Virus record (IMG/VR): IMGVR_UViG_2718217859_000009
Direction: 5' to 3' (one strand)
From: a virus
Lineage: Duplodnaviria > Heunggongvirae > Uroviricota > Caudoviricetes
Length of the DNA: 37,279 bases
Shown here: piece after piece, positions 4,266 to 37,279 of the stretch
How positions within the stretch are numbered: the first letter of the stretch is position 1
Layout of the letters: every line of letters begins with the position of its first letter
The notes under the pieces: generated by a model
Told to the model about the DNA's origin: nothing
The model's database searches: none
What the model saw: only the letters and a program-made list of their open reading frames with translations
Translations under genes and position numbers: made by a program

Positions 4266-4747
4266 GACAGAAGCCCTCCTACCGTTTTACTGATATCGCT
4301 TAAGGCAGATGTTGCCGTTCCCTGCAGATTATTCAGTTGAGTACTGAGATCACCGAACATATCGGACAGGGATTCATCCACCCGTTTTAGCGACAGGGTG
4401 AACTCAATCCGGCGCGGCATACCGTCGCGGAAAAACTCCGTTTTAGTCTGATTCAGTCCCTCAATCACATACATGCCGTAAATCGTGCCGCTGCCTTCAA
4501 TCAGAGGCCATGCTTTCCCCTGTTCTGCCATCTGCTCCAGTGCCAGCAACGACAGCCTGCCGCCTGTTATCTCCGGCATAAGAACACCAGAAAGCGTCAG
4601 CATGTCATTGTCCGGTCCCAGAAACTGCGTTGACGGGCGTCGGTTAACCCGGCTGTTAGCCGCATGTCGCCAGCTGCGCTGATACTGCAGCTCCTGATAC
4701 GGCACGGTGCGCAGCATAAACACGTACAATCCCAGCACCATCATCAT
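4262..4747 (-). CDS. tail protein gpU
   Basis: 161 aa, between T and D as in P2; overlapping start/stop codons. Confidence 0.8.
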   Translation of the reverse strand: MMMVLGLYVFMLRTVPYQELQYQRSWRHAANSRVNRRPSTQFLGPDNDMLTLSGVLMPEITGGRLSLLALEQMAEQGKAWPLIEGSGTIYGMYVIEGLNQTKTEFFRDGMPRRIEFTLSLKRVDESLSDMFGDLSTQLNNLQGTATSALSDISKTVGGLLS

Positions 4748-7700
4748 GCGTCGTATCCCCCCTGATCGCTGTAGTTACTCCTGGCTTTTGCCTTCAGCCT
4801 GCGTTCACGTTCATCAAGCTGGCGGGCCACCTCCCGCGCAATATCCTGCGCACTTTGTCCTGGCTGCGTCTGAATGATGATCTGCGTCGGTGCCTCAATC
4901 CGTTGAACGGGCGGCACAGCAGCTGCGCGACTCACCATCGCTTCACCGCCTTTCGCGGGAAGCGCCAAAGGATGCAACGGTGGAAGCTCTACTGGCGCGG
5001 CAGCAACGCCCATCATTCCGGCAACAACGGCAGCCAGTGCAGCTGTATTTCTCCGGCTGGTCACATTTGCCGGGCCGTTAACAATTTCCGGCCCGTTTTC
5101 ACCGACGATGCCAAACTGCCCGCGCGGGATATACCCGCCGCTGTCATACATCCCCGCAAAGCCATATCCCCATGACGGAAAACCACCTGATGGCATCATC
5201 ACTTTGCCGTCTGCATTCACTGTTGCGGGTTGCTGACGCGTCACGCTTTCCGGCAGTTTCGCCTTTGCAGCCTCTTTACTGATAATGCCGAGTTTCTCCA
5301 GCAACCAGGAAACGCCGGATTTCAGGGAGTCCAGCGGATGCATGACCATATTCAGCCCTTCCGCCAGTGCCTCCCCGAATCGTCGCCCCATTGCCGCTGC
5401 GCTCTGCAGTTCGGCAGAGGTCGACTTAACGGGCGTCAGCAGATCAGTAAACCAGCCCCACAGCGCCTGTACTTTGTCGCCAATCCACTGGAACACGGGC
5501 TTAAGCGGTTCGAATGCTGCACTGACGGGACCTGCCGCCGCTTTGAATCCTTCCACCACGCCACCAAGAAATGCGGTGATGGGTTGCCAGTATTTCCAGA
5601 CAACCAGCGCCACGCCCGCCAGTGCAGTAACCACAAGACCTATCGGACTGAGCAGAGCACCTAACAGACCAGATACGGCATACAGGGCAATGCGCAGCAT
5701 CGCCAGTGGACCAGATGCCAGTACTCGCAGCACCGTGCCTGCGGCGGCCAGTCCACCGCGCAGTACCGCCAGAGGATTCATAAACATCACAGCAACAGCA
5801 CGTAAACCGGATAATCCAGACCGCAAAAGTGCAACCGGCGCACCTGCTACAGTTTTCAGGACATTTCCCGTCAGTGATGCCGTGCGGCGCAAAGACGACA
5901 ACGGCGCAGTAAGTAAACCTGCGGCGTTGCCCGATGAAGCAAGCCCGCGTCGCAGCAGTGCCAGTGGTGCGCCAGCCAGCCAGGACAACGCGCTGCTGGT
6001 TCGAGTTACTGCTGCCGTAACGGAAGGTAACGTTTTGATACCCAGCACAGAGAATCCCAGACGGATCACTGCCAGCGGCCCCAGAACTGCAGCCAGCGCC
6101 ACCGCTAAGGTGCCGAGGCCTACGGTAACCGCAGCCACAACAGCCGCTACTTTCATCAGTGTGCCTGTCAGTTCCGGGTTAGCTTCCACCCAGCGACGCA
6201 ACGCCCCCGTGACGCTTTTCACCGTGTACAGAATATCCATCAGCGGCTGGCGCAGCGTTTCGCCCAGGCTGCTGAAAGTGTTCTGTGCTCCGGTTTTGAC
6301 CAGCAACCACTGAGCAGAAAGTGAGTCTTTGTTGATGTCGGATTCTTTCTGCATGGAGCCGAGCGCATCATTGCCCGCAGTCAGTTTTAGCTGGCGCTGA
6401 AGTTCCGGCAGGTTGTTTGCCAGTTTCGCCGCGTCATCGCCAAACTCTTTACCAAACAACATGGTCATGGCAGACAGACGCTTGTCCTGCGGCAGTGCGT
6501 TCACCTTCTCCAGCACACGCTGGATAGTTCCCATCGCATCCTTCGTCATCTGCTTTTCAATCACTTCAGGATTGAGTTTCAGCAGATTCATCCCTTCAAA
6601 GAAACTCTTGCTTTGCATGGTGGCAATGGATAATTCACGCACCATCGCGTTTGCTGCACTGGCTGCAACCTCCGGCGCAGCGCCCAGTGTCAGAAAGGTG
6701 GAACCCAGTGCCGCCGCTTTACGATAATCCAGACGGTCAGCCACACCGCCCAGACGTTGCATGACATCAATGATGTCTGCCCCTTTCGACATGGCGTTAT
6801 CATCCAGATAGTTCAGTGCATCGCCGAGCTGTTCAATATTGCGGGTAGGTATTTTGTAGAGCTGGGCGATTTTCCCCAGACTTTCTGACAGTTCATCCGC
6901 TGGCAGCTCAAAGGCTGTTGCCGCCTTTGCTGCCGTGCTGGCGAAGGCCAGCAGGTCACGTTTCTGGTCTTCCCAGCTGTCGTCAGGATTTGCGACGTTC
7001 ATGCGCGCACCACCTTCAACCAGTGCGGCAAAGTCCACAGCACCGTTTTCCATCGGCAACTGTTCGCTGGCACCCTTGATGGCATCCTGCATTTCGTAAA
7101 AACGCGCGGTGCGGTTGCCATTATCGTCACGCAGACCATTGACCTGCTTTGCCACACCTTTCATGGCATCTTCCATGCTGGTATAGCTTTTTACTGCCGC
7201 CATCACTGGTGCGCCCATTGCCAGCCCTGCAGCCGTGGTGGTGGCTCCGGCTCCTGCGATGCGATCGCGCACTTCAAGCCGTCTTGAGTATTGTTCTCTG
7301 GCAGCGTTCATCCGTGCCTGTTGTTCACCCAGACGTTTAAGTGCTTTTTGCTGGCCCTCCAGTGCCTGCCTTGTTTCTTCAGCATTTTTCTTAAGTTCTC
7401 GCTGGGCACTACTGAGTTGTCTGGTATCAATCCCTGATTCTTTAAGTGCCTGACGTTGTCTCTGGACCGCCCCCAACAAGCCGTTATAGGTCTGCTGAAG
7501 TTCCTGTACTCGTGTTTTGGCCTGACTGAATAACTTTGCCTGCGCGGCGGTTGGCCTGTTAGTGGCAGCAAATTGTGTGGCGAGTTTTGCCGCCTCTTCG
7601 CGGGCTGCGTTCAGGTTGTTGGCTGTTATAGCTAGTTGCGAGCGCGTCTTGCGAAATTCATCAATTCTGCCAGCCTGCTTATTCAGTTCTTTGAGGCTGT

Positions 7701-7821
7701 TTCGGGTATTCTGAATTGCGCCAGCCAGCTCTTTCGAACTGGCCTGTGCAGCACGGAATGGGCGGGTGAGTTTGTCAACCGCATTAAGAATGACCTGCAG
7801 GCGCAGGTTATTATCACTCAT
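4744..7821 (-). CDS. tail tape measure protein gpT
   Basis: 1025 aa, N-terminal coiled-coil-rich region and Ala/Gly/Leu-rich hydrophobic repeats, immediately downstream of E/E'. Confidence 0.9.
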   Translation of the reverse strand: MSDNNLRLQVILNAVDKLTRPFRAAQASSKELAGAIQNTRNSLKELNKQAGRIDEFRKTRSQLAITANNLNAAREEAAKLATQFAATNRPTAAQAKLFSQAKTRVQELQQTYNGLLGAVQRQRQALKESGIDTRQLSSAQRELKKNAEETRQALEGQQKALKRLGEQQARMNAAREQYSRRLEVRDRIAGAGATTTAAGLAMGAPVMAAVKSYTSMEDAMKGVAKQVNGLRDDNGNRTARFYEMQDAIKGASEQLPMENGAVDFAALVEGGARMNVANPDDSWEDQKRDLLAFASTAAKAATAFELPADELSESLGKIAQLYKIPTRNIEQLGDALNYLDDNAMSKGADIIDVMQRLGGVADRLDYRKAAALGSTFLTLGAAPEVAASAANAMVRELSIATMQSKSFFEGMNLLKLNPEVIEKQMTKDAMGTIQRVLEKVNALPQDKRLSAMTMLFGKEFGDDAAKLANNLPELQRQLKLTAGNDALGSMQKESDINKDSLSAQWLLVKTGAQNTFSSLGETLRQPLMDILYTVKSVTGALRRWVEANPELTGTLMKVAAVVAAVTVGLGTLAVALAAVLGPLAVIRLGFSVLGIKTLPSVTAAVTRTSSALSWLAGAPLALLRRGLASSGNAAGLLTAPLSSLRRTASLTGNVLKTVAGAPVALLRSGLSGLRAVAVMFMNPLAVLRGGLAAAGTVLRVLASGPLAMLRIALYAVSGLLGALLSPIGLVVTALAGVALVVWKYWQPITAFLGGVVEGFKAAAGPVSAAFEPLKPVFQWIGDKVQALWGWFTDLLTPVKSTSAELQSAAAMGRRFGEALAEGLNMVMHPLDSLKSGVSWLLEKLGIISKEAAKAKLPESVTRQQPATVNADGKVMMPSGGFPSWGYGFAGMYDSGGYIPRGQFGIVGENGPEIVNGPANVTSRRNTAALAAVVAGMMGVAAAPVELPPLHPLALPAKGGEAMVSRAAAVPPVQRIEAPTQIIIQTQPGQSAQDIAREVARQLDERERRLKAKARSNYSDQGGYDA

Positions 7822-8250
7822 CGTTGGCCCCGCTTCTCTGAATCGCTTTATACCGCCATTCCAGCACTTCGGTCAGCGGCATAACGTCAGTAACGGATGG
7901 CGGCCAGTGAAAGATGGTGGCGATATCAGCCACCAGATCGTCAACCGTCAGGCTGTCGGTAAACCGGCAAGCACCGACTTCTTCAACAAAAAAGTGACAA
8001 CCTCAACCGACATAGCGGTGAGATCTGCCGGGTCCATCTCTGCAATTTCCTGTGTAGTCAGTGCCGGGCTGGAGATGCGGGGGATCACGGTCATCATCGC
8101 GTTCACATCCATATCCATAATGGCCTGCAGGCGTGTACCGCGCAGTGCACCGGACTGCGGTTTACGCAGCACAATTTCGGTGATTTCAGTTTTACCACGC
8201 ATGATGGGGGTATCCAGTTGAATGGTCTTTTCAGTCTGCTTATCGCTCAT
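7814..8250 (-). CDS. gpE+E' tail chaperone fusion made by programmed -1 frameshift
   Basis: Minus-strand heptamer T-TTT-TTG (plus 7987..7993); the -1 frame then reads VEEVGACRFTDSLTVDDLVADIATIFHWPPSVTDVMPLTEVLEWRYKAIQRSGANDE and stops at a TGA overlapping the T start codon. Confidence 0.65.
7948..8250 (-). CDS. tail assembly chaperone gpE
   Basis: 100-aa ORF upstream of T, ending ...VTFLLKKSVLAGLPTA across a TTTTTTG slippery heptamer. Confidence 0.8.
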   Translation of the reverse strand: MSDKQTEKTIQLDTPIMRGKTEITEIVLRKPQSGALRGTRLQAIMDMDVNAMMTVIPRISSPALTTQEIAEMDPADLTAMSVEVVTFLLKKSVLAGLPTA

Positions 8251-25653: not shown

Positions 25654-26655
25654 ATGGGTGGAGAGACTTCGGCTATACAACGAGTCGCGGGTAAGATTTC
25701 TGATGATATTTTCTCAGTGTTCAAATGGGATCGTGCCGCTAGAGCGGACATGAATTGGGATTGTTGCCAAGAGGCTCATTCCAAGAAAACACATCCAAGC
25801 GATGTTGTATTTTTCTACATAGATCCATATGAGGAGGAAATGGTCTATCTCAACACAGACCTCAAAAGCTATGCAGAAGGTACTATTGGGAAAAAAATAG
25901 TCGAGGGAGCTTTAACATCGCTTGCTTTAGCTACCGAATGTGCAAATGTCAGTGAAGAATGGCGATTGAAATATGTTCATGATGATTCTTTAGGTTATAA
26001 CGTAAGAGGGTTATTATTCTTATATAACCATGATAATTTATATGATAAAGACTTCTATGAGAATATTACAAAAAAATTAGATCACTCATCTATAAATTGC
26101 CCTCCAAACATCAAACTACATTTGCTTGACCCTTATAAAATATCAGATTTGATAAACATATCTTCTGACATAACTAAGTTAATTGGTTCAGGCAAACTTC
26201 CTCAACCTGATAAGTTCACATATTATTATCCAGATCTTTCCCTAACAAGAATAAAGCACCCTATTAATCAGACAACACCTGCAACAATTGAATTATTAAC
26301 ATCACCATACATTATAATAAAGCATGAGGCTTTCAGTTGGCTCAGGGATAAAAACCCTGAGGGATATGTTGTTTATTACAATCAACCGGGGGATTCAGTA
26401 GACGAATTCGTTTACTTCTTTGATATGTTATCAACTTATCAGATATTAACCGAAGGTAAACCAATCGTATTACGCCATTGTCACATTCACCCAAATGAAA
26501 ATGCCATTCATCATTTTGAAAGAGCGAAAAAGAAATACAGCACAGACTGGCTCTTAGGCGAGGATGAAAGACTTTTTCTTAAAATTGACTTCGACAAGAC
26601 AGACAAAATTGTTGTTGAATATAATCTTGAACAAATCGGCATGGAGCAACGATAA
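25654..26655 (+). CDS. hypothetical protein, gene 1 of AT-rich three-gene cargo operon (candidate defence system)
   Basis: 333 aa, AAGGAG ribosome-binding site, stop overlaps the start of gene 2 (TAATG); possible D...E-x-K nuclease-like motif (FFYIDPYEEEMVYLNTDLK), unverified. Confidence 0.7.
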   Translation: MGGETSAIQRVAGKISDDIFSVFKWDRAARADMNWDCCQEAHSKKTHPSDVVFFYIDPYEEEMVYLNTDLKSYAEGTIGKKIVEGALTSLALATECANVSEEWRLKYVHDDSLGYNVRGLLFLYNHDNLYDKDFYENITKKLDHSSINCPPNIKLHLLDPYKISDLINISSDITKLIGSGKLPQPDKFTYYYPDLSLTRIKHPINQTTPATIELLTSPYIIIKHEAFSWLRDKNPEGYVVYYNQPGDSVDEFVYFFDMLSTYQILTEGKPIVLRHCHIHPNENAIHHFERAKKKYSTDWLLGEDERLFLKIDFDKTDKIVVEYNLEQIGMEQR

Positions 26656-27734
26656 TGGCTAAAAAACTATATTTCGCAACTGATAAAAATATTTATGATG
26701 CATTACATCATAAAAGGATAACCGCTGCAAAGTTGCATGAATTATTGTTGAATCGAGGTGTGTTTTTATCACCAGAACTCGACAAGGAAATACTAATCGA
26801 GGAAATATCCAAACTTCCTCACGGATTTAATGAATTAGAACACATAAAAAAACTGGTCAAAACATATGACCCAAGGGAAAGCACTACTAGTGTGAGCTTC
26901 CAAACCTCAACAAATCAGGCCGAATTAAAAAGTGCTGCTGAAGCACTAAAAAAAACATGCTCCCCTAGTAAAGGTCAAAGCCTGAATATTGTAGCTAAAA
27001 AAGATGGCTCGCTTACAGTAGAATACAAATATGAAGAAATAGACCTGTCTAAAACTGCATTACGTCAGATCGACAAGCGGAATGTTATAATAGAACTTCG
27101 CCCTGGAGCTGACAAAGTTGAAGTACGTATGCCTCAAAACCCCGAGGCAAAAAAAGTTATTGAGAGCTTGCAAAACGAGCTATCTAAAATCAAGTCCGAA
27201 CCTATCGAGCGCTTCGAAATATCATTACTAGCAATAACTGATCCTACATTGCGAAGTCAGTTTTTTCAGGAATTAATGAATGGTCTACGCGGTTATGAGA
27301 CTGATGACGTAACAAAAGTCGAATTAAATCGCAGTACTGATGCTAGTGAGGATGAAGACAAGGAAGAAACTATTGATACCGGATTTGTTAAGAAAGCCGT
27401 CCTTAATGGTGAAGGGGTAAATAGTTCAGCTATATTTTCTCAACTACATGAGAAAGGTTATTATATCGGGCGTATTGCATGGTCTTCAAAGCCGACAAGT
27501 GGAATTGGAGACAGAATCAACGTCGAAGCATTTTTCAAAGACTCAGAAAAATGCTGTGACTTTGCCTATCAAATTAAAGGTATAAACAATCAAAAAGAAG
27601 ACGGTTTCAATGTAACCATTCGCGCGGCAACGGCACAAGAGAAAAAACATATTAGTGAATTAATTGAGTCCGCCGCTGAAAATGCCTATAATATAATAAT
27701 AGGATCAGAGGTGAACGAAGATGAAAAAGGTTAA
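26655..27734 (+). CDS. hypothetical protein, gene 2 of cargo operon
   Basis: 359 aa, Lys/Glu-rich, translationally coupled on both sides. Confidence 0.7.
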   Translation: MAKKLYFATDKNIYDALHHKRITAAKLHELLLNRGVFLSPELDKEILIEEISKLPHGFNELEHIKKLVKTYDPRESTTSVSFQTSTNQAELKSAAEALKKTCSPSKGQSLNIVAKKDGSLTVEYKYEEIDLSKTALRQIDKRNVIIELRPGADKVEVRMPQNPEAKKVIESLQNELSKIKSEPIERFEISLLAITDPTLRSQFFQELMNGLRGYETDDVTKVELNRSTDASEDEDKEETIDTGFVKKAVLNGEGVNSSAIFSQLHEKGYYIGRIAWSSKPTSGIGDRINVEAFFKDSEKCCDFAYQIKGINNQKEDGFNVTIRAATAQEKKHISELIESAAENAYNIIIGSEVNEDEKG

Positions 27735-28404
27735 ATGGCTTAAGTTAAACATACGGCTTGAGTTTGAAACAGCCGTTAGACGTCTTTCTCTTGATTCTTT
27801 TACAGAGGATAAAGGGAAAGGGTTCATTTTTGATAAAATACGCCATGATTTTGCAAATGGTCGCTTTGTCGAGCGTATTGTTTATCATGATAAAATATTA
27901 AGCTTTGACGGAAGCGAAACTACCGTTGAAAGAATCGAATATCGCACCACAAATTTTAGCGTGGCTTTAGACTCTCTTCCTGTAATGCAGATTACCAACC
28001 CACCCAGAACTTTAAAGCCTTTTTCGCAGGCTTTGGTAAAAAATCTTGGCTTAGGTGTTAGTTTGGAAGAAATTGACATAAACCCTATAGACTGGCTTAA
28101 TGAAATATCTTCAAGTGTAAATATCAATTTAACACAACTTGATATTTCAAGGGTTAGAGTTTCTGATTACGCCACAGCTAAAATGCAAATAATTGGCAGC
28201 AATGATCTTAGGAAGTATTATAAAGAAGAATTAGAGGGTAAAAAAATAAGAATTGACAGGCTTGTTTGCTCTGTTAATTCATTAGAATATTCCGGTAAGC
28301 TCAAGATCACCAATAGCGGCCTTGCTTATATTGATGTTAGAAATGAGAATGAGTTTACGAAAATCGTTTTTGATACGTTAAAAAAAGTCACCCTTCAATC
28401 ATAG
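27721..28404 (+). CDS. hypothetical protein, gene 3 of cargo operon
   Basis: 227 aa, start overlaps the end of gene 2 by 14 nt. Confidence 0.65.
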   Translation: MKKVKWLKLNIRLEFETAVRRLSLDSFTEDKGKGFIFDKIRHDFANGRFVERIVYHDKILSFDGSETTVERIEYRTTNFSVALDSLPVMQITNPPRTLKPFSQALVKNLGLGVSLEEIDINPIDWLNEISSSVNINLTQLDISRVRVSDYATAKMQIIGSNDLRKYYKEELEGKKIRIDRLVCSVNSLEYSGKLKITNSGLAYIDVRNENEFTKIVFDTLKKVTLQS

Positions 28405-28932: not shown

Positions 28933-28975
28933 TTTTCCTCCTATGACACCACAAGCAATACTGTACACATAACCA

Positions 28976-28991
28976 CTGTTTATATTTACAG
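28976..28991. promoter_or_regulatory. LexA (SOS) box
   Basis: CTGT-ttatattt-ACAG, a perfect CTGT-N8-ACAG match, about 45 nt upstream of the small ORF. Confidence 0.65.
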
Positions 28992-29085
28992 TATATAATA
29001 ATCTTACTGATGTAAAACGTTTTTTTACGTTCATCAGCCTGATATGCCTGGTATTATTAAGAGCACGAATTGTTAACCCGCGTAA

Positions 29086-31500
29086 TTAATACAGATCCCG
29101 CCACTTATCATCTTCCTGCAAACGCTGGTTCCGATAGAAGATACGCAGGCCTGCTCCTGACGGAATACTGCCGCCGCGAAGGAGTAAATCGACCTCTTTC
29201 TCGCTGCCATCAAATCCTCTGGACTTCAGTTCATAGACGAGCTGCTGTCGTTGATGGTCTGTAATTCGCTGTTTGTAGTCTCTACGCCGTTTCGGTTTCA
29301 CCAGGCGTAACCTTGCAGCCAGTTCCCGGCGTTCTTTTTTGTTCATACTGTGCAGGTAATCGTGCAACTCCTTGTCATCCATACGGGTGATATCCGTTCT
29401 GGTATCCCCATCAGCTGATTTGTCTTTCCCTTGTTGGTACAAATTTTCAGCAAGGGGACAGTTATTGCCACGAGTCCAAGGGGCGCAAGCGCCCTGGTCG
29501 GCTGCCGCCTCCTGAACATCAACGGCCTTACGAACCATTTTCCACTTCACGGCATGAGTGCAGATCTTGCCCTCTGCAATAGGTGACCAGATGCCATAAA
29601 TACGAATGCCGTGATCGCCATAGGCGGTCGGCTCTTCGTTGATTTCATAAGCGGTTCTGATGAGGTGATATTTGCGGGGAACCAGTACGCCGCCCTGCTT
29701 CATGATGTAGGTGGCAAAACAACCAGCATCAGCAGCAGCCAGGATGGCATCAAGGCGTGGGTTATCCAGTACCGGCGCACCTGCTTTTTTGTCCCCCTGT
29801 TGCCTTGCCGCCTGACCAGCCAGCAATCGCAGTTCACGGTAAGCCTGACGCCCCGGAATGCCAAAGAAGCGGAATTGCTGAACACGATGCAGAGACGCCC
29901 AGGCATTAACGTATTCAGCATTATCACGCAGGGATTTCCCCGTTTCCTTGCTGATCTCGCCAGCCAGACCACGCCCGTCAATGTTCTTACTGATGTATTT
30001 CGCGATGTAGCTTGTTGGCGTTCCTTTGCGCGGGTTAATCAACTCAGACTTAAAGCGCGGCCCAGTGTTATTGCCCAGCTCCTCGCGGTCTTCACGGATG
30101 GCAAACTTACGCAGTAATGCAGTGATGGCACGGCGGTCTTTTTTGCGCATGAAACACAACAGGTGCCAGTGAACTGTGCCGTCATGATGCGGCTCAGCCA
30201 CCCGCACGCCATACCAGCGCAACCCGGCTTTGTGCATCGCCTTACGAAATGCAGCAAACATGCCGACCAGATAATCGCTGCTTTGTCTTACCGTCGCGTT
30301 TGTCCAGGTCGGGTTTGGTCTGCCGTTATTGAGCGTGGAATGGAAACGTGACGGACAGGTGATGGTGTAGAAAACGGCGCAGTCACCGCGCATTTCCGCG
30401 ATAAGCTCCAGACCTTTAACACAGGCCATCATCTCATTGCGGCGATGCGTCGGGTTGCTGCTGCTGGCGTTTACCACATCCTCCATGTCCAGCGTGTCGC
30501 CGTCTTCGTTCACCAGTTCATGAGAACGGAAAAACTCCAGCGACTTACGGCGCTGCTCACGTTTATGCATCACGGCTTCATAGCTGACATAGGGAGATGC
30601 TTTTTTGCTGACCAGGCAGACAGCACGCAACTGCTCTTCCCGCCATTCGCAACGCATCTTCCATAATTTCCGATACCACCAGTCGGCGCACAACATACGC
30701 GCCAGCGAACCCGGAATGAGTTCATAGGGCACGGGTTTACGGCGGTTTCTTTTCCGACGGAGTTGCTCAAACGCAGGAGGGATTACATCCAGACGCAGGG
30801 TTTCCGCTGCCACCTTTTCCCATGTCTTGCGGATTTCTTCTGGCTTAACGTCATCGGTGGCATACAAATCACCACAAGCTGCATCAAGGCACATGCTCAT
30901 ATGCGCGGCAACAAGGGTAGACAGGCGCTTCACCTGATCCTGACTCATTTCAGGCAGGATCAGCAGGCCGTCCAGCCCTTCATGGCTTGCCATAAAGCGA
31001 AAAGAAGTGGATAGCTGACTCTCGCGTACATGCTCCAGTCGTTCCAGACATGGCTTAATCGTCTCACGCAAATAGCGGGAATAAGCCTTTGGCCTGCCCA
31101 GGCTGCTGAAGTATTCAATACGTTGCATCAGCGGCTTGCTGATATGGGAAGGCTGGGCGTTGACGTCCGCCAGAATGACCATATCCGGATTAAAACGCTG
31201 CTGCTCATGCGCCAGCTTTGCCCGACTAATGAGCTTATCCTGCTCGATTTCGCGCTGGACAGGATCACGGGATTCATTAAAGAAATAACGCTCCCAGACC
31301 TGATCACTCAGCGCCTCACGGCGCAGCTGTTCCTGCTCGTTATCGGCAGCGTACAGAGTGATCAGGTTTGAAAGCGCAGAAACCGGCGCAACTTCCGCCG
31401 GGTCCAGATAAGGGTTAATGGCCTTTTTCGGGCTGCTCCATGAGAATGCTGCTGCGACCTCGTTAAAGCCGCTGCAGTTGTTCATATCAGCATGGCTCAT
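29086..31500 (-). CDS. replication initiation endonuclease gpA (rolling-circle HUH relaxase)
   Basis: 804 aa; motifs [15 protein letters not shown] and [12 protein letters not shown] typical of P2 A protein. Confidence 0.92.
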
Positions 31501-34243: not shown

Positions 34244-35179
34244 ATGTCAACACATGAAATCACATTTCGCCATGTGGACGAAAAAAAGAAATCCTTAATC
34301 ATGCAGAATCGCGGAGGGCAATCGGTTATAGATCGGATACTGAAAGCCTATGGTTTTTCTTCCCGACAAGCATTCTGTAATCACCTAGGTATATCGCAAA
34401 GTACAATGGCGAACAGGTATGCCCGTGACACTTTCCCTGCTGATTGGGTTGTTATCTGTAGCATGGAGACTGGAGTGCCGGTCGAGTGGTTGGCATTTGG
34501 CACTGATACCGAGAAGGGAAGCATTACAAATAATGCAGAAAAAAGTCACAACAATTGTGACAGCAAGCATCAACATCTCAATAGAGAACAAGACATCCAA
34601 AATGAGAACTCTTTTACTATTAACCAAGGTGGAAAAGCAGCAATAGAGCGAATCGTTTTGGCTTATGGATTTAAGACAAGACAAGCTTTAGCTGATCATA
34701 TTGGTGTATCAAAAAGTACATTAGCCAATCGTTACATGAGAGATACCTTTCCTGCTGACTGGATTATTCAATGCTCACTGGAAACCGGTGCTTCATTAAC
34801 ATGGCTAACCACTGGTAACGGGGCAATGTTTGAAAAGCCTCGAAACGATACTATCACTATCCCATATCATAAAATAATTGATGGATCTCTTGCTCAAGAA
34901 ACCTTCTTGACTTTTGACTCTAAGTTGTTAGAAGGAACCTTTCTGCAACCTTTAGCAGTATTCATTGATGAGGAAATATATATTGTAGAATCAAAATTTA
35001 ATGAAGTTACTGATGGCAAGTGGCTTGTGAATATTGAAGGGAAAATAAGTATCAAAGATTTGACTCGCATACCCGTTGGTATGGTTAAAGTTGTAGGCAC
35101 TAACGCAAGTTTTGAATGCTTACTTACTGACATTATCGTTTTGGCAAAATGTAAAAGAGTTTTTACTAAAAATGTATAA
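34244..35179 (+). CDS. putative immunity repressor with tandemly duplicated CI-like DNA-binding domain
   Basis: Two copies of ...R(L/V)(L/V)xAYGF(S/K)(S/T)RQA(F/L)...IS(Q/K)ST(M/L)ANRYxRDTFPADW(V/I)(V/I)xCS(M/L)ETG..., then a distinct C-terminal domain; AT-rich. Confidence 0.65.
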   Translation: MSTHEITFRHVDEKKKSLIMQNRGGQSVIDRILKAYGFSSRQAFCNHLGISQSTMANRYARDTFPADWVVICSMETGVPVEWLAFGTDTEKGSITNNAEKSHNNCDSKHQHLNREQDIQNENSFTINQGGKAAIERIVLAYGFKTRQALADHIGVSKSTLANRYMRDTFPADWIIQCSLETGASLTWLTTGNGAMFEKPRNDTITIPYHKIIDGSLAQETFLTFDSKLLEGTFLQPLAVFIDEEIYIVESKFNEVTDGKWLVNIEGKISIKDLTRIPVGMVKVVGTNASFECLLTDIIVLAKCKRVFTKNV

Positions 35180-35190
35180 AGAGAAACATC

Positions 35191-36135
35191 ATGACTGAAC
35201 CAACCAATAAAGATAGCGAAATAAAAAAACACCTATTAGAATTTCTTGATTCACAGTCTGAAAATATAGCAAAACACTTCTACTCTCATATAAAAGACTT
35301 AATAGAAGCAGGAGAGCTTTCTGAAGCTCATAATAACCTAGCGCTAATTGAAAAATACATAACTAGGCCACCGATGGATGAAGAACCCAATATAAATGAA
35401 AATAAAGCCAATAAAAGAAAAAATGTAAAATCACTTGAACCTAATAATTATGTAGAACATATAATACAATTAGAAGAACGAAACAGCATATTAACTCTAC
35501 AGTTAGAGCATTATACTCAGGATCTTAATAGAAAAAACGCAATAATCGAAAACAACGTAAAACAAATTAATTCATTGATTAGTGAAAATAAGGAACTCCG
35601 TAGCCAAGTACAGCAACAAAGAATCGATGATAAAATCCCCACCTATGTTAACGATGTTAAATCAGATCTTGGTAGTGATGACAAACATTTTATATTGATG
35701 TCTATTATCTGGTCTATTGCAGGGGTATTTTTTGGCTTCCTTGCAGTAGTATCTGCTTTTTTTACATTATACATGAACTTAGATTTAAAAAATCTCACTA
35801 ACCTTCAGTTAATATATATCTTCACGCGAGGATTAGTTGGAATCGCCATTCTTTCATGGCTATCATATATCTGCCTTAGTAACTCAAAAAAGTACACACA
35901 TGAATCGATCAGGCGAAAAGATCGTCGACATGCTTTGATGTTTGGTCAAGTTTTTTTGCAGATATACGGTTCTACAGCAACTAAAGAGGATGCAATAGAA
36001 GTCTTTAAGGATTGGAATATTTCAGGTGACTCTGCATTTTCAGGTCAGACAGAGCAACCACCGAGTTTTGCGTCATTTTTGAATACAATCAAAGACAAAG
36101 TTAAAGTAACTGGAAGTGATAAAGAAACAGATTAA
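35191..36135 (+). CDS. coiled-coil membrane protein (moron between repressor and integrase)
   Basis: 314 aa; N-terminal coiled-coil region (LQLEHYTQDLNRKNAIIENNVKQINSLISENKELRSQVQQQ) then two hydrophobic helices; very AT-rich. Confidence 0.65.
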   Translation: MTEPTNKDSEIKKHLLEFLDSQSENIAKHFYSHIKDLIEAGELSEAHNNLALIEKYITRPPMDEEPNINENKANKRKNVKSLEPNNYVEHIIQLEERNSILTLQLEHYTQDLNRKNAIIENNVKQINSLISENKELRSQVQQQRIDDKIPTYVNDVKSDLGSDDKHFILMSIIWSIAGVFFGFLAVVSAFFTLYMNLDLKNLTNLQLIYIFTRGLVGIAILSWLSYICLSNSKKYTHESIRRKDRRHALMFGQVFLQIYGSTATKEDAIEVFKDWNISGDSAFSGQTEQPPSFASFLNTIKDKVKVTGSDKETD

Positions 36136-36201
36136 TCATGAACATGTATGCTACTAAGTAAAAAATACATTGAATACTGTTTTTATATACAGTTAAATTT
36201 A

Positions 36202-36226
36202 GCCCTCTGATATGAGGGCATTTTTT
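36202..36226 (+). terminator. rho-independent terminator abutting the int start
   Basis: gccctc-tgatatg-agggc then tttttt, directly followed by ATG. Confidence 0.5.
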
Positions 36227-37279
36227 ATGGCAGTACGAAAACTCACCACAGGAAAATGGCTTTGCGAATGTTACCCCGCCGGACGTAGCGGACGCCGTGT
36301 GCGTAAACAATTCGCCACCAAAGGCGAAGCACTGGCCTTCGAGCGATACACCATGGGGGAAATAGAAGCAAAACCCTGGCTGGGCGAATCAGTGGATCGT
36401 CGGACACTGAAAGATATGGTTGAGCTATGGTTCAAATTACATGGCAAATCTCTTACTGCCGGACAGCATGTCTACAACAAGCTGCTGTTGATGGTTGACG
36501 CCTTGGGAAATCCCCTTGCAACTGATCTCACCTCAAAAATGTTTGCTCACTATCGAGATAAACGCCTGACAGGCGAGATCTACTTCAGCGAGAAATGGAA
36601 GAAAGGAGCAAGCCCGGTCACCATTAACCTGGAGCAAAGCTATCTAAGTAGTGTTTTTAGCGAACTATCCCGTCTGGGCGAATGGTCGTATCCGAACCCA
36701 CTGGAGAACATGCGAAAATTCACCATCGCAGAAAAAGAGATGGCATGGCTTACCCATGAGCAGATTGTTGAATTGCTGGCTGATTGCAAACGTCAGGACC
36801 CAATTCTGGCACTGGTAGTTAAGATATGCTTAAGCACAGGCGCACGCTGGCGTGAAGCCGTAAATCTTACCCGCTCACAGGTGACCAAATACCGAATTAC
36901 CTTTGTCAGAACGAAGGGGAAGAAAAACAGAAGCATCCCTATCAGTAAAGAGCTTTACGAAGAGATCATGGCGCTCGATGGGTTCAATTTCTTCACAGAC
37001 TGCTATTTTCAATTTTTATCCGTGATGGAAAAAACGTCTATCGTGCTCCCTCGCGGTCAACTCACACACGTTCTGCGCCATACGTTTGCAGCGCACTTCA
37101 TGATGTCGGGTGGAAACATTCTGGCCTTACAAAAAATTCTCGGACACCACGATATAAAAATGACTATGCGTTACGCACATCTGGCACCGGATCATCTGGA
37201 AACGGCGCTCCGTTTCAATCCTCTGGCAACGCTGCCAAGTGGCGACAAAGTGGCGGCAGCGGTTGGCATTACCCCGTAA
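36227..37279 (+). CDS. int: tyrosine integrase (P2 Int family)
   Basis: MAVRKLTTGKW... parallels P2 Int N-terminus; C-terminal R...HxxR...Y catalytic pattern (LTHVLRHTFAAHFMMSGG...MRYAHL); the tabulated ORF starts 15 nt earlier inside the terminator. Confidence 0.9.
   Translation: MAVRKLTTGKWLCECYPAGRSGRRVRKQFATKGEALAFERYTMGEIEAKPWLGESVDRRTLKDMVELWFKLHGKSLTAGQHVYNKLLLMVDALGNPLATDLTSKMFAHYRDKRLTGEIYFSEKWKKGASPVTINLEQSYLSSVFSELSRLGEWSYPNPLENMRKFTIAEKEMAWLTHEQIVELLADCKRQDPILALVVKICLSTGARWREAVNLTRSQVTKYRITFVRTKGKKNRSIPISKELYEEIMALDGFNFFTDCYFQFLSVMEKTSIVLPRGQLTHVLRHTFAAHFMMSGGNILALQKILGHHDIKMTMRYAHLAPDHLETALRFNPLATLPSGDKVAAAVGITP

Follow-up and report, generated by a model that had tools for sequence, protein, structure and literature searches.

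A predicted membrane protein gene between cI and int of a 186-like Escherichia coli prophage is a candidate anti-phage defence gene

The cI-int region of the prophage

The DNA analysed here, referred to as the window, is a stretch of 37,279 nucleotides from a virus of the Caudoviricetes (IMG/VR virus record IMGVR_UViG_2718217859_000009), and the subject of this study is gene X, which lies in it between the repressor gene cI and the integrase gene int (Table 1). A preliminary description, made from the sequence of the window alone, had placed a 314-amino-acid gene between the repressor and integrase genes, co-oriented with the former; the open reading frame was found at exactly this position, beginning 11 nucleotides after the cI stop codon on the same strand, upstream of int. 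The backbone genes of the window comprise those for a 186-type CI, a CP76-family CII, an Apl/Cox-like protein and Fil, together with replication gene A and a tyrosine integrase gene. Since it carries this CI, CII, Apl/Cox and Fil, the window represents a 186-like E. coli prophage and not P2 proper. P2 had served as the reference in the preliminary description; the nearest reference is phage 186, in which, as had been stated for P2, cI abuts int, and which has no gene X. The region from 35100 to 36250 was 100% identical to a prophage adjacent to rcdA in E. coli S43 and other strains.

Table 1. Positions of gene X, its flanking features and the predicted parts of its product in the window.
Feature	Position	Strand	Basis and remarks
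cI	34244..35179	+	186-type CI repressor, 311 amino acids; PF07022 (two matches) and PF16452 (one match); RefSeq 'phage repressor protein CI'
Gene X	35191..36135	+	Predicted inner-membrane protein, 314 amino acids; open reading frame list; identical to RefSeq WP_001678408 'hypothetical protein'
N-terminal helical bundle, residues 6-57	35206..35361	+	AlphaFold2 helices 7-39 and 43-57; predicted local distance difference test score (pLDDT) 85-91
Linker, residues 58-83	35362..35439	+	Probably disordered; N/K/E/P-rich; pLDDT 49-71; gappy alignment
Coiled-coil helix, residues 84-166	35440..35688	+	Heptad register; unbroken into TM1 in both AlphaFold2 models
Transmembrane helix 1 (TM1), residues ~167-195	35689..35775	+	Kyte-Doolittle 1.6-2.35; conserved W174 and G178 are invariant columns
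Periplasmic loop, residues 196-204	35776..35802	+	~9 residues; hydropathy and AlphaFold2
Transmembrane helix 2 (TM2), residues ~205-230	35803..35880	+	Hydropathy; conserved R213-G214 pair
Cytosolic C-terminal region, residues 231-293	35881..36069	+	Column conservation 0.86-0.92; pLDDT >90
int-adjacent regulatory block	36170..36226	+	TTGAAT, LexA box, TTAAAT, hairpin and T6; right boundary of the cargo cassette
int	36227..37279	+	Tyrosine integrase; Int_N and Phage_integrase domains; RefSeq start; reaches the end of the window

Gene X had also been described as much poorer in GC than the phage core. Its GC content of 0.328 (0.26 at third codon positions) was indeed low compared with 0.507 for the whole window and 0.489 for int; however, the AT-rich block is not confined to the gene, since it begins within cI (GC content of 0.386), upstream of the gene X start. 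The CI encoded here consists of two tandem 186-type CI helix-turn-helix domains and a CI C-terminal domain, while CI proteins of 187-199 amino acids in relatives with X-family genes have a single helix-turn-helix domain; the CI of 186 itself is about 192 amino acids long.

A Shine-Dalgarno-like site, AAGAGA (35179-35184), precedes gene X. A consensus scan of the gap between cI and gene X detected neither a plus-strand terminator nor a promoter, so that co-transcription from the lysogenic promoter is the simplest expectation. Judged from this arrangement, gene X is most likely co-transcribed with cI, as the next gene of a presumed lysogenic operon, and expressed in the lysogen. The possibility that gene X is not a real gene was ruled out by conservation and selection: it was present on at least 1000 contigs, its C-terminal module was found in 417 protein clusters and that module was under strong purifying selection, from which we conclude that it is a genuine gene.

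Gene X is accessory cargo in a swappable slot

Comparison with related phages revealed unrelated occupants at the same place. Klebsiella phage 4LV2017 has an unrelated 349-amino-acid gene in the cI-int slot, and E. coli phage vB_EcoM-813R9, whose int DNA was 95% identical to that of the window and which uses the same rcdA attachment site, has a 558-amino-acid gene whose product matched the PADLOC model PD-Lambda-1 (E = 3e-120) and contains DUF4041 and T5orf172. PD-lambda-1 has been validated experimentally as a defence system (Vassallo et al. 2022, PMC9519451); it is the same as SNIPE, which on later characterisation proved to be a nuclease bound to the membrane that cleaves the DNA of phages as it is injected (PMC13190303). 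Because 186 is without the gene and sister phages hold unrelated genes in the slot, these sequence comparisons identify gene X as accessory cargo and not as a core or morphogenetic gene, in agreement with the status proposed for it in the preliminary description.

The right edge of the cargo cassette was located just past the gene X stop codon, at 36144-36167, where homology to phages with other cargo resumes; in DNA comparisons the left edge fell within cI. The slot therefore has the attributes of a hotspot, namely the same flanking core genes, unrelated occupants and at least one validated defence gene. A cI-int hotspot was described by Rousset et al. in K139-like Vibrio phages (PMC9122126), and in a 2026 census 8% of the defence systems of P2-like phages were located between int and the primase gene (PMC13586616).

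The region was matched, at least in part, in 902 of 5,426 complete E. coli genomes, but the DNA of the gene X module in only 153. In E. coli FAHZZU6014 (NZ_CP182912), an IS903B (IS5-like) element that had inserted into gene X or next to it split the matching region into two pieces. In Yersinia rohdei (locus L035) and Brenneria corticis (L036), about 1.6-1.8 kb of extra DNA was present between the X homologue and int (positions 4700-6700 of these loci), and the slot can evidently accommodate a second cargo gene.

Predicted architecture of the gene X protein

The preliminary description had predicted a long coiled coil followed by two transmembrane helices. This was upheld by an uninterrupted heptad register over residues 87-142, corresponding to a coiled coil of about 55 residues, by hydropathy analysis and by a continuous AlphaFold2 helix; the structure prediction that it had called for also brought out two elements that it had missed, the N-terminal bundle and the conserved cytosolic C-terminal region. 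The mean pLDDT rose from 74 with an alignment of the close family to 86.6 with 112 diverse homologues, and exceeded 90 over the module defined below. In the better model, the bundle (residues 7-57) and linker (58-83) are followed by one continuous helix (84-195) in which the coiled coil runs into TM1; a second long helix (204-259) comprises TM2 and a cytosolic extension, and is followed by short C-terminal helices. The N-terminal bundle is proposed, on sequence grounds, as a candidate sensor or specificity domain.

Conservation climbed from residue 136, and the final 30 or so residues of the coiled-coil helix were conserved (QQxRIDxKIPxYVxxVKxxLxxDD). The cytosolic C-terminal region bore the motif Y-T-H-E-S-I-R-R-K-D-R-x-H-A-L-x-F-G...L-Q-I-Y-G...V-F-K-D-W-N...A-F. 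The module that defines the family was accordingly delimited as residues ~136-293 (window positions 35596-36069), consisting of the helix that precedes the membrane, the two transmembrane helices and the cytosolic region.

The hydropathy plot and sequence placed a basic stretch, KK...RRKDRR, just after TM2. The N-terminal part (165 residues) and the C-terminal part (80 residues) would therefore both be cytoplasmic under the positive-inside rule, and since the periplasmic loop is so short, the working parts of the protein would be oriented to the cytoplasm and the membrane. Neither a signal peptide nor a surface-exposed domain was detected in the protein. When the family profile was run against the sequences of solved structures, it matched only generic coiled coils such as GCN4, myosin and tetherin.

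The C-terminal module is shared with conflict-system proteins

A profile of the module was searched against 1.84 billion representative proteins and matched 417 clusters at E≤0.001, 227 of them at E≤1e-10; no Pfam model covered it in the window protein, in its homologues or in precomputed annotations. In 111 distant homologues the module was always C-terminal and 150-177 amino acids long, preceded by N-terminal regions of 96-263 amino acids. Across 112 distant homologues, residues G252, F272 and W275 were invariant, and E238, R245, H247, A248, F251, G260 and N276 were conserved in at least 90%. Members were found outside phages, in alpha-proteobacteria and other phyla.

The N-terminal partners of the module fell into several groups. 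A TIR-fused group comprised 19 of the 111 homologues (18 matched TIR_2 and six matched TIR at E≤0.001), and EAD11 domains were present in seven; the remainder included an MgtE_N-like group and many coiled-coil regions without a known domain. A TIR-module gene was found within a MoxR(AAA_5)/vWA/DUF5691/DUF5682 operon, beside AAA_15 plus DUF4276 and a PemK toxin, and another, on a Sinorhizobium plasmid, adjoined patatin and nucleotidyltransferase genes. On three independent contigs an EAD11-module gene lay immediately upstream of a gene for an Mrr_cat-nSTAND3 NTPase; a local hidden Markov model search detected no EAD11 domain in this nSTAND3 neighbour. Short, stand-alone forms of the module occurred near resolvases, an OLD-TOPRIM ATPase or a type I restriction-modification system. 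Kaur et al. (2020) described conflict systems centred on NTPases, with effectors tethered through effector-associated domains (PMC7159879), and, as far as domain composition and gene order can tell, the fusions and neighbourhoods of the module are those described by these authors.

A shared 'LIxxGxLxEA' motif raised the possibility that the N-terminal bundle of the gene X protein is a divergent EAD11; this was not supported by hhalign (probability of 6%).

The N-terminal part is variable and the module constrained

Mean pairwise identity in the family was 20% over residues 1-135 and 67% over residues 136-293, and the segment after TM2 was almost invariant. For the module, the ratio of non-synonymous to synonymous substitution rates (dN/dS) was 0.01-0.11, indicative of strong purifying selection. 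For the N-terminal part dN was 0.6-1.4 and the apparent dN/dS was 0.4-1.3, values that are unreliable since dS was saturated and the alignment poor. The contrast in conservation fits a variable sensor that is joined to a constrained effector.

Comparison with the sister allele P0034, which is carried on the same prophage backbone, located the change precisely. DNA identity was 94% up to position 34496, undetectable from 34497 to 35601, where the remaining 3' two-thirds of cI and codons 1-137 of gene X lie, and back at 85% from 35602, exactly at the start of the module. Between these two prophages, otherwise 85-94% identical, the diverged stretch thus forms one continuous block. The module may serve as a recombination anchor, or the N-terminal part of the gene X protein may be inherited together with the immunity type.

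Distribution of the family

The gene X protein matched phrog_2628, a family of unknown function, over its full length (E = 3.8e-215, residues 1-314 against profile positions 1-314 of 314). Close homologues formed 160 clusters, all from Enterobacterales, and a scan of a genome collection with the close-family alignment yielded loci from eight species. The gene order cI-X-int was observed in the 186-like prophages examined from E. coli, Enterobacter roggenkampii, Dickeya, Dryocola, two Brenneria species and Yersinia rohdei, and likewise in one Enterobacteriaceae isolate. The CI proteins paired with X-family genes differed in architecture, with lengths of 187, 199 and 311-312 amino acids. In Klebsiella pneumoniae a copy of gene X with 95% identity was found. 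A tblastn search of the INPHARED phages gave no gene X match, probably because the related Klebsiella records in that collection (MK416020, MK416009, MK422454, MK433580 and MK433582) are prophage predictions that end at, or 3 nucleotides past, the cI stop codon and so omit gene X and int.

Two settings departed from this pattern. In Chimaeribacter (loci L037-L040), a 359-amino-acid homologue, present in three species, stood alone among metabolic genes on a 352-kb replicon. In Enterobacter (L010-L013, positions 5000-8000), an intact 318-amino-acid homologue lay in a decayed 186-like remnant with cI reduced to fragments of 52-99 amino acids, int truncated or missing and no structural genes; E. 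roggenkampii carries an intact version of this prophage type at the same arsRBC-proximal site. Since the remnant copies were near-identical in DNA sequence, they are uninformative about long-term selection.

Comparison with known systems

SNIPE shares with gene X the cI-int slot, in a sister prophage that has an integrase of the same type and likewise attaches at rcdA. It has an N-terminal transmembrane segment, DUF4041 and a C-terminal T5orf172/GIY-YIG-type nuclease, whereas the gene X protein lacks both a nuclease and DUF4041, shows no similarity to SNIPE in sequence and carries its transmembrane hairpin in the C-terminal half; in agreement, the window protein gave no match to PADLOC PD-Lambda-1, DUF4041 or T5orf172.

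In architecture and associations the closest functional analogue would be SLATT, the SMODS- and SLOG-associating 2TM effector. Like the gene X protein, SLATT proteins have two transmembrane helices and a conserved cytosolic helical region, a resemblance of architecture only; like the module, SLATT is a membrane partner of TIR domains and occurs in NTPase-centred conflict systems, where it has been predicted to oligomerise and breach the membrane (PMC7159879; bioRxiv 10.64898/2025.12.03.692087). SLATT domains are associated with enzymes that make nucleotide signals (SMODS/CD-NTase, TIR, SLOG); among the distant homologues there are TIR fusions and one patatin/nucleotidyltransferase neighbourhood, whereas the window gene has no such partner. 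At E≤1 the window protein matched none of the SLATT models of Pfam (SLATT_1 to SLATT_5 and the fungal models), none of them ranked within the top 25 families by frequency for the 112 homologues at the same threshold, and none appeared in the precomputed Pfam annotations. Three SLATT-annotated viral proteins were among the weak matches of a Foldseek search of BFVD, with E values of 0.4-2.1 that are not significant. The protein was not filed as SLATT, because the SLATT profiles were unmatched and the Foldseek matches lacked significance.

The position of gene X behind the repressor gene, with which it is presumed to be transcribed, recalls RexAB. In phage lambda, rexA and rexB lie behind cI in the lysogenic operon and have a defence function, and the membrane component, the four-transmembrane protein RexB, is thought to depolarise the cell on infection. 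RexAB differs from gene X in being a two-gene system with four transmembrane helices in RexB, compared with one gene and two helices, and there is no sequence similarity; at E≤1 the window protein matched no Rex, superinfection-exclusion (SieB, Imm) or holin family of Pfam. Sub-threshold matches to Phage_holin_3_6 were obtained for five of the 112 homologues.

The K139-like Vibrio phages, which are related to P2, carry exclusion or defence cargo in the same genomic slot. According to Nesper et al. (1999), the glo gene of K139 reportedly lies in the corresponding region. Glo is described as periplasmic, in contrast to the cytoplasm-facing transmembrane hairpin of the gene X protein, and the two are set apart here by description only; that K139 carries glo as an exclusion gene has been documented (PMC4870250).

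True homology, over the whole module and at 25-33% identity, was found to the TIR and EAD11 proteins with two transmembrane helices. The N-terminal halves of these proteins are TIR or EAD11 and they belong to multi-gene systems, whereas the prophage protein begins with a helical bundle and coiled coil of its own and is encoded without a partner gene. The dynamin-like LeoBC system (PADLOC 'Dynamins') was considered and rejected: the match to LeoC was weak (E = 0.011, residues 85-189) and there is no GTPase domain. A LeoBC match in the homologue P0170 covered the coiled coil and TM1 only, and reflects similarity of architecture or composition.

The int-adjacent block and other features of the window

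A terminator had been said to follow gene X. A terminator-like hairpin, GCCCTC-N6-GAGGGC (36202-36219), was found 66 nucleotides after the stop codon, forming with T6 an element that spans 36202-36226; however, it does not belong to the gene, since it forms part of a block that was conserved upstream of int in phages with other cargo. The same block contains a perfect LexA box, TACTGTTTTTATATACAGT, at 36175-36193, followed by TTAAAT at 36193-36198 and the int start codon at 36227. The LexA pattern gave four strand-hits in the window compared with 0.28 expected. A transcript from the putative SOS promoter would begin at about 36204-36206, within the left arm of the hairpin. With its start inside the stem, such a transcript could escape the terminator that stops read-through from cI and gene X, which would make int SOS-inducible. 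The -10 element of this promoter, which is unproven, lacks the usual A at position 2.

The sole other LexA box in the window (28974-28993) is about 90 nucleotides past the 3' end of replication gene A (29086-31500, minus strand), a position that resembles that of the LexA-controlled p95/tum SOS operon of 186. Three co-oriented plus-strand open reading frames of 333, 359 and 227 amino acids (25654-28404) lie between putative portal-side genes and replication gene A; we take this interval to be the canonical P2 defence hotspot, and it is probably the first cargo locus implied by the preliminary description, in which gene X was called a second one.

Candidate function of gene X

The product of gene X is a candidate lysogen-expressed, single-gene membrane protein for anti-phage defence, a reading to which we give slightly better than even chances. 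By analogy, it is favoured by the presence of SNIPE in the same slot of a sister prophage and by the fusion of the module to TIR and EAD11 domains in conflict-system neighbourhoods. The protein would form a hairpin in the inner membrane with both ends in the cytoplasm; the variable N-terminal part would sense the infecting phage, directly or indirectly, and set specificity; the coiled coil would transmit, or drive, a change in oligomeric state; and the conserved two-transmembrane module would perturb the inner membrane by depolarisation or permeabilisation, so that the infection is aborted. In a non-lethal variant of this scheme, the protein would block genome entry at the membrane. Three observations suggest the abortive, membrane-effector form: the partners of the module, a periplasmic loop of very few residues, and selection that differs sharply from one half of the protein to the other.

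A broader proposal, which we put forward tentatively and hold at well below even chances, is that residues ~136-293 constitute a membrane effector domain, undescribed in the libraries searched, that bacteria would use in at least four formats: fused to TIR, fused to EAD11 beside STAND NTPases, encoded in MoxR-vWA operons and, in Enterobacterales prophages, in single-protein defence, where a hypervariable N-terminus would take the place of a separate sensor and itself recognise components of the phage. The motif of this candidate effector domain is Y-x-H-E-S...D-R-x-H-A-x-F-G...F-x2-W-N...A-F.

Several observations weigh against a defence function. The gene X protein is labelled 'hypothetical' in all sources, fits no Pfam, NCBIfam or PADLOC family, defence models included, and was not found under the accession WP_001678408 in the main texts or DefensePredictor supplements that were searched; fold searches with the predicted structure returned generic long helical hairpins only. 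Around the Chimaeribacter homologue there were no genes of phage or defence type, and neither cI nor int occurred within 4 kb. In the TIR fusions the module could simply anchor the protein in the membrane and not act as the effector, and a coiled coil under relaxed constraint, and not an arms race, could account for the variable N-terminus. As the diverged block also spans the 3' part of cI, the N-terminal variation may simply travel with the exchange of immunity type.

The main rival to abortive defence, which we consider unlikely although the strongest of the alternatives, is superinfection exclusion without suicide, in which a protein of the inner membrane, much like P22 SieA, HK97 gp15 or T4 Imm, would occupy or alter an entry factor there and so block genome entry while the cell is left unharmed. 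An inner-membrane protein whose gene is co-oriented behind the repressor gene would suit this role, as would a very conserved cytosolic region that could bind a conserved host membrane protein; SNIPE, from the same slot, acts at the site of injection (PMC13190303), and the exclusion gene glo is carried by K139 (PMC4870250). However, a periplasmic loop of only about nine residues speaks against it, no Pfam match to SieB, Imm or another exclusion family was obtained, and TIR and EAD11 fusions beside STAND and MoxR-vWA genes fit a generic effector better than a host-specific entry blocker.

A role in lysogenic conversion or host physiology, be it envelope stress tolerance, colonisation or that of a toxic membrane protein that stabilises the prophage, appears improbable. 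It is in keeping with prophage cargo that is probably expressed in the lysogen, with the solitary Chimaeribacter homologues among metabolic genes of the chromosome or a secondary replicon, and with the intact gene in the Enterobacter remnant with broken cI and int; yet the survival of those near-identical copies says little about selection, the protein has neither a signal peptide, a surface-exposed domain nor similarity to known virulence or conversion factors, and the TIR and EAD11 partners and neighbouring genes are typical of conflict systems. We regard as most improbable a function in the life cycle of the phage itself, as a membrane-tethered modulator of CI or Int with a role in the lysis-lysogeny decision or induction, or as a holin-like lysis timer. 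The location inside the immunity-integration operon between cI and int is compatible with such a function, as are the weak holin-family matches of a few distant homologues and the co-inheritance, in the diverged block (34497-35601), of the gene X N-terminus with the CI C-terminal domain. Against this, 186 and many relatives are without gene X, sister phages substitute unrelated genes, X-family genes pair with CI proteins of differing architecture and the module also occurs widely outside phages. Moreover, P2/186-like phages have their lysis genes away from the cI-int region.

That prophage hotspots carry membrane-protein cargo with a likely defence role was already known, and the slot itself had been noted before. 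What looks new from these comparisons is the protein family, which was unnamed in the libraries searched, its conserved module, and the links of that module to TIR, EAD11/STAND and MoxR-vWA. If gene X does act in defence, a compact, single-gene system would be added to the prophage repertoire of E. coli and Klebsiella, and a handle would be gained on a two-transmembrane effector module that is present in at least 417 clusters and linked to TIR, STAND and MoxR-vWA immune systems. Prophages that are otherwise near-identical combine the conserved module with widely differing N-termini, a natural allelic series that could allow sensor specificity to be tested by domain swaps. The comparisons also firm up the cI-int slot of 186-like coliphages as a defence hotspot, with SNIPE and gene X as alternative occupants, which is useful for mining further systems.

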